DNA from: Escherichia coli
Lineage (GTDB): Bacteria > Pseudomonadota > Gammaproteobacteria > Enterobacterales > Enterobacteriaceae
Direction: 5' to 3' (one strand)
Assembly: GCF_003018255.1 (NCBI RefSeq)
Contig: NZ_CP027440.1
Length of the DNA stretch: 64,000 nucleotides
Shown here: positions 5,077-6,994 of the stretch, one piece after another
How positions within the stretch are numbered: position 1 is the stretch's first letter
Layout: every line of letters begins with the position of its first letter
Translations under genes and position numbers: made by a program
The notes under the pieces: model-generated
The model's input: the letters and a program-made list of their open reading frames with translations, nothing else
Told to the model about the DNA's origin: nothing
Database searches by the model: none

Positions 5077-5102
5077 TCCCTGAAAACCTCGGTTTACGGG
5101 AA
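5077..5102. other. gix-like recombination site (gin-proximal)
   Basis: TCCCTGAAAACC-TC-GGTTTACGGGAA closely resembles the Mu gix / hix-family dyad (TTATCCAAAACC..GGTTTACAGGAA). It marks the start of the inverted repeat. Confidence 0.7.
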
Positions 5103-5471
5103 ACGGTAAATAAGGCTGCTGATGCCCTGCCATCGGGTGGAACCGCCGTGGCAGCAAACAGACTCGCCACCCCAAGAAATATTAATGGCGTTCCTTTTGA
5201 CGGAACGCAGGATATCAACATCACGTCAGGAATGACGCAGTCAACCGCAGATGGCCGGTATGTACAGAATGTTCAGCTTGGAGCACAGAGCTATCATTCA
5301 CCCGGAGGCAATGAAATATCATGGAATTACAGCGCACCTTCCGGTTGTATGCTTTCCGGTATTAACGTGCAGGAAACCGGCTCCCGGTCTGCGGACAATA
5401 TCGGTGGGGTCTATTATCGCCCGGTTCAGATTTATATTAATAATGCCTGGAGAACGGTAAGTTCAGTGTAA
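5091..5471 (+). CDS. Alternative tail fiber C-terminal cassette (S'v), currently in the silent orientation (no own start)
   Basis: The open frame from the gix site reads GLRETVNKAADALPSGGTAVAANRLATPRNINGVPFDGTQDINITSGMTQSTADGRYVQ...YYRPVQIYINNAWRTVSSV. It parallels residues ~178-295 of S on the other strand. Confidence 0.7.
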   Translation, partial: GLRETVNKAADALPSGGTAVAANRLATPRNINGVPFDGTQDINITSGMTQSTADGRYVQNVQLGAQSYHSPGGNEISWNYSAPSGCMLSGINVQETGSRSADNIGGVYYRPVQIYINNAWRTVSSV

Positions 5472-5481
5472 ACCACAGAAA

Positions 5482-5500
5482 AGGGTGCTGAATGCACCCT
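5482..5500. terminator. Hairpin between convergent S'v and U
   Basis: AGGGTGC-TGAAT-GCACCCT. On the minus strand it is followed by TTTCTGTGGTTT. Confidence 0.45.
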
Positions 5501-5505
5501 CTGAA

Positions 5506-6027
5506 TTATTCCGGTTTTTCCGGCCAGGGAATCGCCTGGTAATGCCCCTCACTGGCAATATCATTAAAGTGCATTTCTTTAAGCTGTCGGATATACGCCA
5601 TCCAGCGCGTCAGCTGTAATTTATTTTCATCGCTAATCATGTCCAGTTTTAATTCTGTTTTCCAGTCATCCACGGTTTCGTTGGCTTCCTGGAGCAGCGA
5701 TGAGCGACGCTTTTCAGCAACCGTCTTCCAGTTTACCGGCACCTTTGATATCAGGCCATCAGAAAACTGCCAGTTACCGTCAATATTCACACCTTCCGGC
5801 AGTTCGTCCACTTCAACAACAGTAAAACCTGCCGGATATAAAGCAGAGACATCTTCAGCAACAGAGCAGATAATACCCGTTACAGGCGAAATACAGAGTT
5901 TGTATTTCTTTGTGAAAAGCGGGATAGATTCATAAAAATCCCTTCCGTCCTCACTCTGGAAATACTGAACATCCTCACCATAGGGTTTGTGTTCCGGGTA
6001 ATATCGTTTTACGTTAATAAGCTCCAT
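5506..6027 (-). CDS. Tail fiber assembly protein (Mu U / P2 G-like chaperone)
   Basis: MELINVKRYYPEHKPYGEDVQYF... is typical of the tail fiber assembly family. AAGGTGA RBS precedes the ATG at 6027. The track ORF 5506..6138 is an N-terminal over-extension. Confidence 0.75.
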   Translation of the reverse strand: MELINVKRYYPEHKPYGEDVQYFQSEDGRDFYESIPLFTKKYKLCISPVTGIICSVAEDVSALYPAGFTVVEVDELPEGVNIDGNWQFSDGLISKVPVNWKTVAEKRRSSLLQEANETVDDWKTELKLDMISDENKLQLTRWMAYIRQLKEMHFNDIASEGHYQAIPWPEKPE

Positions 6028-6106
6028 TATTTCACCTTGTTTTTGTTGAAAAGACAAAATCATCATATATTTATTCAGATAATCTGTTTTTTGAACTACT
6101 GCACTT

Positions 6107-6994
6107 TTATGCGCTGGAAGCTGTTTTCCACGAACCATCTATCAGAAACTGAACAGGTCGATAATATGCGGTTACCGTTGCATTACCATCACCAGCGACA
6201 TCAAGCCCTGTAAGTACGCATCCGTCAGGAACTTCAAAAATATTATATTGCATTCCAATCGTTGACCTTGAACCTCTTCGAATGCTTTGAACATAACGTG
6301 AGTCAGCCACAGACTGCGTCATCCCCGATGTAATATTTATATCCTGCGTTCCGTCAAATGGGACACCATTAATATTTCTTGGAGTGGCGAGTTTATTCGC
6401 TGCAACAGCCGTTCCGTTCGATGGCAGGGCATTCGCCGCCTTATTTACCGTTTCCCGTAAACCGACGTTATCGATAAAAGCGCCTTTATCCGGAATGTCT
6501 GCGCCGTTCTGCTCCCTGCGCAGGTAACGGTTATCACCTTCGCTTTTGCTGTAAACATCCAGATTATTACGGGCGGTTCCCGCATTCTCCAGGTCGGCAA
6601 GGTTCTGATCCTTCGCCAGAGCATTAACGTCACCGGGACCAAGACTGTTTTTTGTGGCAAGCGCCCCAAGACCAAGATAACCACGGGCAAGACGCTGGGC
6701 TTCCGCACCGGCATCAGCAATTTCTTTCAGGTTGTTTTTCCGGGAAAAGGCATTCGCAGCGATAATGGCTTTAATGGACAGCGTAAGCTGGTTTAACTGC
6801 GCCTTATCCGGCTGAATACTGGCTTCAGCCAGAATATTCAGCAGTTCGGCCTGGAGAATATTCAGCCAGTCCTGACCAATCCAGCTGATACCTTTTTGTC
6901 CGTCACCTTCGGTAAACCAGGTGGTGGTATTACTCTGCGCCGGTGCCAGCGCAGGCATATTCGCCACGCCGGAATTATTATCAACATGAAACAT
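6107..6994 (-). CDS. Tail fiber protein S (constant part plus currently expressed Sv tip), 295 aa
   Basis: It follows the baseplate genes with an ATGA-type overlap. The gix site lies at codon ~177. The C-terminus is ...TAYYRPVQFLIDGSWKTASSA. Confidence 0.8.
   Translation of the reverse strand: MFHVDNNSGVANMPALAPAQSNTTTWFTEGDGQKGISWIGQDWLNILQAELLNILAEASIQPDKAQLNQLTLSIKAIIAANAFSRKNNLKEIADAGAEAQRLARGYLGLGALATKNSLGPGDVNALAKDQNLADLENAGTARNNLDVYSKSEGDNRYLRREQNGADIPDKGAFIDNVGLRETVNKAANALPSNGTAVAANKLATPRNINGVPFDGTQDINITSGMTQSVADSRYVQSIRRGSRSTIGMQYNIFEVPDGCVLTGLDVAGDGNATVTAYYRPVQFLIDGSWKTASSA
6452..6477. other. gix-like recombination site inside S
   Basis: TTCCCGTAAACC-GA-CGTTATCGATAA. The inner half is identical to the site at 5077-5102 in inverted orientation. 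Confidence 0.7.

Follow-up and report, generated by a model that had tools for sequence, protein, structure and literature searches.

A 64,000-nucleotide stretch of Escherichia coli DNA (assembly GCF_003018255.1, contig NZ_CP027440.1; hereafter the window) contains, at positions 5077-6477, a Gin-type invertible segment of ~1.4 kb. The segment lies in an Sp18-like, Mu-like prophage of Shiga toxin (Stx)-producing E. coli (STEC) and carries two alternative tail-fiber tips, Sv and S'v, together with one Tfa chaperone gene, U. The serine invertase Gin recombines the flanking gix sites at a central TC dinucleotide, joining the constant part of the fiber (Sc) either to tip A (Sv), with U in the sense orientation, or to tip B (S'v), with U convergent to the fiber gene behind a hairpin. 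In flipped lysogens, the majority of those sequenced, U points against the fiber gene, and it is therefore either expressed independently or not needed. The reading preferred here, at roughly even odds (a probability of about 0.5), is that a single U, transcribed independently of orientation, serves both tips.

According to the textbook rule, derived from Mu and P1, each alternative tail-fiber tip is accompanied by a chaperone of its own, and because of this rule host-range engineering usually transfers tip and chaperone as a pair. The segment is a tidy exception, of moderate interest and of some use for fiber engineering: in a widespread STEC prophage family, 70-residue tips reassort freely with one chaperone gene, which is often on the "wrong" strand. 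If several tips are served by one chaperone that is transcribed separately, the arrangement is a compact natural way to swap receptor-binding tips without a chaperone swap; if instead one tip is chaperone-free, a self-folding Mu-type tip has been identified. Either outcome can be tested directly with Sp18 of strain Sakai, which has been reported to be intact and efficiently packaged (PMC2669165).

The invertible segment and its single chaperone gene

On the minus strand the genes are ordered gp47, gp48, S, a 79-nt spacer, U, a 34-bp hairpin region, the reversed S'v, and gin. The elements of the segment and its borders are as follows.

5506-6027, minus strand: U, 173-aa Tfa chaperone (RefSeq WP_000420351.1)
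6107-6994, minus strand: S, fiber open reading frame (ORF) of 295 aa
6478-6994, minus strand: Sc, constant N-terminal part of S, ~172 aa (domain 1 of PDB 5yvq_A at 1.5e-44)
6107-6477, minus strand: Sv, currently expressed tip (A-type), the C-terminal ~118 aa of S, co-oriented with U
5091-5471, plus strand: S'v, silent alternative tip (B-type), an open frame without its own start codon
6028-6106, minus strand: spacer from the S stop to the U start, 79 nt, 26% GC against 43-52% in the flanking genes
5480-5502: hairpin between the convergent S'v and U, within the 34-bp spacer 5472-5505
5077-5102: gix site on the gin side, reading TCCCTGAAAACC-TC-GGTTTACGGGAA, from alignment with Mu gixL and gixR
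6452-6477: gix site on the Sc side, its reverse complement reading TTATCGATAACG-TC-GGTTTACGGGAA, from alignment with Mu gix
5082-5266: left arm of the inverted repeat, from a repeat search; codes for the conserved 5' portion of the S'v cassette
6288-6472: right arm of the inverted repeat, from the same search
4461-5021, minus strand: gin, serine DNA invertase of 186 aa (Pfam Resolvase 1.4e-51, HTH_7 1.7e-14)

U matches the Pfam family Caudo_TAP (PF02413) at 1.9e-18 (67.3 bits against a cutoff of 22.1) and the Mu U protein (PDB 5yvq_B) at 2.3e-15. No second Tfa gene, or hidden U', is present in the 64-kb window: Mu U and Mu U', used as tblastn queries, each match only 5509-6030, and a profile built from eight diverse Tfa proteins and run over all window ORFs of >=40 aa returned a single ORF even at E<=10. 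The initial annotation, made from the nucleotide letters alone, had described a G-type segment with two tips, a single chaperone gene and no U', and all of this is borne out; the hairpin-bearing gap between S'v and U is exactly 34 bp (5472-5505) and leaves no room for a U'. The Mu-style arrangement of one own chaperone per tip (U and U') is absent here, and it is the only tested defining feature of a Gin-type host-range segment that is. In-frame ATGs 13-17 codons upstream are probably not the start of U, as in each of the three U types described below the MELINV/MQLINV start has a Shine-Dalgarno sequence in front of it. In TfaMu, the distal fiber is bound by the N-terminal domain, which remains on the virion, and trimerisation is driven by the C-terminal domain (PMC9608196). 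By homology, the N-terminal half of U would likewise be the fiber-binding half; it is the better conserved one among the three U types.

The fiber itself is short. Residues 1-198 of S align with residues 1-191 of Mu S, and residues 230-295 with the Mu tip at 436-504 (PDB 5yvq_A); a tblastn search of Mu S against the window gives 46% identity. The middle shaft of the Mu protein (~240 residues) is absent, S being 295 aa long compared with 504 for Mu S. S can be described as a minimal Mu S in which the N-terminal 190 residues and a C-terminal 66-residue tip are kept. No Pfam model matches S or S'v. The silent tip S'v also matches the Mu S tip (5yvq_A), and more strongly the C-terminus of the short tail fiber of phiTE (9cuy_c, 5e-16). 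The two tip cassettes are small and homologous, with ~70 variable residues, and the shared C-terminal motif that had been pointed out is found in both in the form YYRPVQ-x6-W-[KR]-T-x-SS. In-silico inversion at the central TC yields an intact S-S'v fusion of 303 aa in a layout identical to that of Sakai ECs4989. Sv as the C-terminal ~118 aa of S and S'v as its inverted alternative had both been correctly placed. Variants of the B-type tip differ at synonymous sites by dS of 0.7 to >2, with ratios of nonsynonymous to synonymous change (dN/dS) of 0.04-0.12. On these values S'v is not junk but a constrained coding sequence under strong purifying selection.

The recombination sites and the invertase are close to those of Mu. 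Both gix sites are 26 bp long, as proposed initially, and stand in inverted orientation at the outer ends of the inverted repeat; Mu gix reads TTATCCAAAACC-TC-GGTTTACAGGAA, and the central dinucleotide TC is identical in Mu and in both window sites. The inverted repeats that were said to bound the segment are present, although their arms measure 185 nt (81% complementary) and not ~155 bp. Gin is 75% identical to Mu Gin over 181 aa and is transcribed in the direction of the late tail genes, and the first 260 nt of gin, the part in which a Fis-dependent recombinational enhancer would lie, can be aligned with Mu gin without a gap. The hairpin is terminator-like on the minus strand, with nine pairs and the tail TCTGTGGTTT, and its fold z-scores are -2.7 (minus) and -2.2 (plus). 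As a predicted intrinsic terminator it is good on the U strand but less so on the fiber transcript, where the U-rich tail is weaker. Equivalent, more symmetric hairpins are present in the other cassette sets.

Orientation and cassette diversity in related prophages

Inversion is detectable with gin intact. In strain 2013C-4081, the interval 5085-6472 is inverted at 99.8% identity between flanks collinear with the window; the natural breakpoint falls within this interval, and the outer gix half-site on the Sc side remains with Sc in flipped genomes. RefSeq annotates in this strain a 303-aa fiber and a Tfa gene on the opposite strand, as in Sakai, in agreement with the earlier claim that inversion turns U antisense to the late transcript. 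The evidence on orientation is a comparison between genomes. Among 5,426 complete E. coli genomes, the Sc-Sv junction (U sense) occurs in 14 and the Sc-S'v junction (U antisense) in 184, counts that are not clone-corrected and of which the ratio is inflated by clonal O157 genomes; a wider census, in a collection of 15 billion proteins, is less skewed, exact copies of the 295-aa protein being on 451 contigs and those of the 303-aa protein on at least 1000. Each orientation is seen in several serotypes and sequence variants. Both orientations are common, and the U-antisense state is the commoner. Mixed orientation is not indicated by the contigs ending at the inverted repeat (L038-43, L048-50), as a 185-nt repeat breaks short-read assemblies anyway. 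Two ~93-kb records named as Stx2c- and Stx1a-converting phages (LC727881.1 and LC727895.1) contain an inserted Mu-like phage of the Sp18-type family in the flipped state; the segment of LC727881.1 is ~92% identical to that of the window.

Among related loci from IMG/VR and GTDB, the layout with one Tfa gene recurs in three diverged cassette sets, with identities of 100%, 63% and 60% for U and of 100% and 81% for gin.

Set 1: tip A co-oriented with U, tip B convergent; U1
Set 2: tip C co-oriented with U, tip B' convergent; U2, 63% identical to U1
Set 3: tip D co-oriented with U, tip E convergent; U3, 60% identical to U1 (gin 81%)

Both orientations are found in each set (L015/L035 versus L016-19, L045/47 versus L046, and L027 versus L031, respectively). 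U is invariably co-oriented with tip A, C or D and convergent to tip B or E, the last two having the sequence ADN[IV]GGVYYRP in common. Tips and chaperones have also reassorted: tip B occurs with U1 and with U2, and so does tip C, which in one locus (L020) stands beside a U that is 98% identical to U1.

A further group of loci is frozen in the flipped state. In seven loci from IMG/VR (L021-24, L026, L033, L036) and about eight complete E. coli genomes, gin, the co-oriented tip and one of the gix sites are missing. What remains is Sc joined to a tip of type B or E, then the hairpin, then an intact U that is convergent to the fiber gene and still has ~120 nt of the spacer upstream of it. In these loci the esterase gene described below comes next after the convergent U. 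All have one common deletion junction, yet they are diverged, with dS in U of 0.1-0.43 and dN/dS of 0.10-0.23, and they reside at different chromosomal sites, interrupting flgK in JE86-ST05 (NZ_AP022815) and xdhA in CI5 (NZ_CP011018). In the tail region of the CI5 copy, no pseudogenes are annotated. Most simply, these loci can be read as descending from a phage that was permanently locked with U convergent to the fiber gene, went on spreading and kept U under selection. One locus with a truncated U (L032) is uninformative, being a prophage remnant cut by a chromosomal deletion, and phage mEpX1, in which an invertase lies beside a fiber gene and no Tfa gene is present, has a fiber of a different family.

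The most elaborate relative is found in Citrobacter braakii ATCC 51113 (L004), where positions 5819-8223 contain three gix-like sites, three tip cassettes and a single Tfa gene of 229 aa; a second locus (L059) is similar. One of the three cassettes, of only ~118 aa, lies between two gix sites, and a perfect bidirectional terminator with a 17-bp stem separates the fiber gene from the Tfa gene. With three gix sites, three tips and one Tfa, this locus shows that the one-chaperone theme is broader than the family of the window. In Yersinia phage vB_YenM_201.16 (L104, 2880-3053), a P2-like invertible segment, the Tfa after the expressed fiber is annotated with 57 aa and the convergent Tfa with 140 aa; this may be an intermediate toward a one-chaperone segment.

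A proposed shared chaperone for two tips

The initial annotation had offered three explanations without ranking them: independent expression of U, a flipped fiber that needs no chaperone, and a dead-end orientation. Independent expression is now the best supported, the chaperone-independent fiber is possible but weakened, and the dead end is disfavoured. The mechanism proposed is a Gin-type host-range switch in which two homologous tip cassettes share one Tfa chaperone. U would be transcribed from its own signal in the AT-rich spacer upstream, and because of this signal it would be made in both orientations and could assist both tips; the hairpin would separate the two convergent transcripts. 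The spacer at 6028-6106 is the candidate site of such an orientation-independent promoter. The gap before the Tfa gene measures 79 nt in the window, 120 nt in set 2, 51 nt in set 3 and 69 nt in the Citrobacter locus, and is AT-rich; in canonical segments with two Tfa genes (seven segments: Mu, P88, pro483, Cartapus, Chris1, SEN8 and L054), it is <=20 nt at 14/14 tip-to-Tfa junctions, many of which overlap. The long gap fits an independent expression signal ahead of a shared chaperone gene but is no proof of one.

Several observations weigh against a shared, self-expressed U. A scan for the sigma-70 consensus gave no match in the spacer 6028-6106, and the three spacer types have no alignable motif in common. 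The four annotated late promoters of Mu have ATAACCCC in common, ~20 nt upstream of the -10 element, and a C-box model derived from them (ATAACCCC-N18-21-TAnnnT) has no match anywhere in the prophage. Nor does the late box of the prophage itself, CTGAwATyCCGCAAArCC, occur anywhere near U, being restricted to 28319-28336 and 20391-20408 on the minus strand, upstream of lys and gene I. The conservation of U in the frozen loci could stem from recombination with invertible relatives, and the frozen prophage of JE86-ST05 has frameshifts in other tail genes. The clonal inflation of the 184:14 count likewise takes some force from the prevalence of the flipped state.

The late box was found as an 18-nt sequence common to the likely late promoters Plys and PI of the prophage, 38 nt upstream of TAyGCT; it is unlike the ATAACCCC box of Mu, and no equivalent was found inside gene N, where Mu has PP. 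A C/Mor-like activator is encoded at 28336-28746. A likeness of the U spacer to Pmom (CTGAAT...TGATGAyTTTT) is loose and too weak to use, and the idea that the type-C spacer is a fossil tip end was discarded after alignment.

The first alternative is that B/E-type tips fold without any Tfa, U serving only the co-oriented A, C and D tips and lying idle when flipped. The strict orientation of the tips in the Sp18-type family speaks for this, B and E never being co-oriented with the Tfa gene and A, C and D always, as do the three tips with one Tfa in the Citrobacter relative and the failure to find a U promoter. However, B-like tips terminate the fibers of three unrelated phages, peduovirus P2_2H1, Actinobacillus phage pPE4 and phAPEC8, and in each a co-directional Tfa gene follows 0-3 nt downstream; in the Citrobacter locus, too, the B-like tip is the one co-oriented with the Tfa gene. 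Unaided folding of B tips is weakened by these neighbouring Tfa genes, and by analogy the B tip type would normally have a chaperone. In addition, frozen loci that have no co-oriented tip still hold an intact U under purifying selection, and both tips are homologous to the Mu tip domain that is bound by TfaMu. This alternative is considered unlikely. It has an extended form, more doubtful still, in which B/E mini-tips fold without Tfa and inversion toggles between a fiber made alongside a co-transcribed chaperone and one that has no chaperone. If, as homology with TfaMu suggests, the chaperone stays on the tip and contributes to receptor binding, the switch would alter not only the tip but also whether it is capped.

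When the segment is flipped, U could instead be transcribed from outside the spacer, by a promoter lying for instance within the Sv cassette or between gin and gix and reading into the segment. There is no convincing promoter within the spacer, and the frozen loci have, at the deletion junction ~120 nt upstream of U, a 10/12 match to sigma-70 (ATGATA-17-TATAAT). The -35 element of this junction site is not conserved among the frozen loci, however, and a sigma-70 scan of the plus strand at 5000-5100 gave no site. Frozen loci without the Sv cassette, gix and gin still keep U. An outside promoter is held to be improbable.

Slightly less credible is that, in the flipped state, other prophages of the STEC cell supply a chaperone in trans from their own Tfa genes. 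STEC genomes are rich in tailed prophages, the fiber query matching up to 7-9 places per genome, and the C-terminal domains of Tfa proteins are broadly conserved (PMC9608196). Against such a supply, identity between U and the Tfa proteins that were aligned from beyond its family (Mu U and U', P2_2H1, pPE4, phAPEC8) is only 20-33%, the frozen loci have retained a U of their own, non-STEC hosts such as CI5 show the same layout, and the 64-kb window contains no other Tfa gene. Finally, a flipped orientation that is a non-productive dead end, tolerated as inversion is neutral in the prophage state, would agree with U being antisense to the late operon when flipped and with the lack of a promoter match, but it is very improbable given that flipped copies outnumber the others, that strong purifying selection acts on their tip, and that locked flipped derivatives have diversified at different chromosomal sites.

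Prophage context and comparison with known systems

The segment is situated at the right end of the prophage. Across the window from 327 to 37813 (minus strand), 32 Mu proteins are collinear with the DNA, from ner, A and B through the head and tail genes to gin, com and mom, which is the gene order of a Mu-like transposable prophage. The DNA of the window is 100% identical to that of E. coli O111:H11 strain 88.0502, in which the prophage abuts gabP. Two tail genes precede S.

7545-8630, minus strand: baseplate gene J/gp47
6994-7554, minus strand: gp48

Between gin and com/mom, a gene at 2313-4361 (minus strand) encodes a protein of 682 aa with matches to Pfam SASA (sialate O-acetylesterase, 1.6e-13) and DUF6645 (8e-26); it is followed by DUF1378 and DUF826 genes at ~2076-2255 and 1795-2040. 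At this place Mu has no counterpart to any of these genes. The esterase gene is frameshifted in JE86-ST05. Cargo genes similar to these SASA/DUF6645, DUF1378 and DUF826 genes are found close to the lysis region in Stx phages, the esterase being similar to NanS-p. Upstream of com, at 1200-1260 (minus strand), GATC sites are closely spaced (TCGATCGTTTTTGTCGATCGATT), an arrangement reminiscent of the Dam/OxyR-controlled region of Mu Pmom.

Compared with the Mu G segment, the segment of the window has near-identical gix sites with the same central TC, a Gin of 75% identity, homologous Sc, tips and U, and the same gene order of gp47, gp48, S, segment, gin and com/mom. The differences are in size and in the chaperones. 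The segment is 1.4 kb long, compared with 3 kb in Mu, and its inverted repeat 185 nt, compared with 34 bp; the fiber has 295 or 303 aa instead of 504 and is missing the middle shaft. In Mu each tip gene is followed, only 2 nt downstream, by a chaperone gene of its own, whereas the window has a single one, 79 nt downstream of tip A, and tip B lacks one. The C segment of P1 is a Tfa-type invertible fiber segment like Mu G. In P88, pro483, Cartapus, Chris1 and SEN8, a Gin-family invertase likewise adjoins a segment of alternative fiber C-termini, but each of the five (5/5) carries a convergent pair of Tfa genes, separated from their tips by <=20 nt. The Citrobacter locus, with three gix sites, three tips and a single Tfa gene co-oriented with the B-like tip, goes beyond the two gix sites and two tips of the window. 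Tip cassettes can also outnumber chaperone genes in multiple-inversion (shufflon-like) fiber systems, such as that of a P2-like prophage of enteropathogenic E. coli (EPEC) (PMC4272514); an inverting 'Mu prophage' locus of EPEC is described there too.

The closest known system is Sp18 of Sakai (ECs4989-ECs4992), an element of the same type, which has a 303-aa fiber, an opposite-strand Tfa gene, an Sv fragment and a DNA invertase, followed by the same SASA/DUF6645 gene. Sp18 represents the flipped state of the window segment, the window copy being in the other orientation and beside gabP. A 2009 paper reported that the invertible host-specificity region of Sp18 differs from that of Mu (PMC2669165); no discussion of the single chaperone of the Sp18-type segment was found in the searchable literature. 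The element has been in sequence since the Sakai genome, and its one-chaperone logic is best regarded as a modest new variant of the Gin-type host-range switch.

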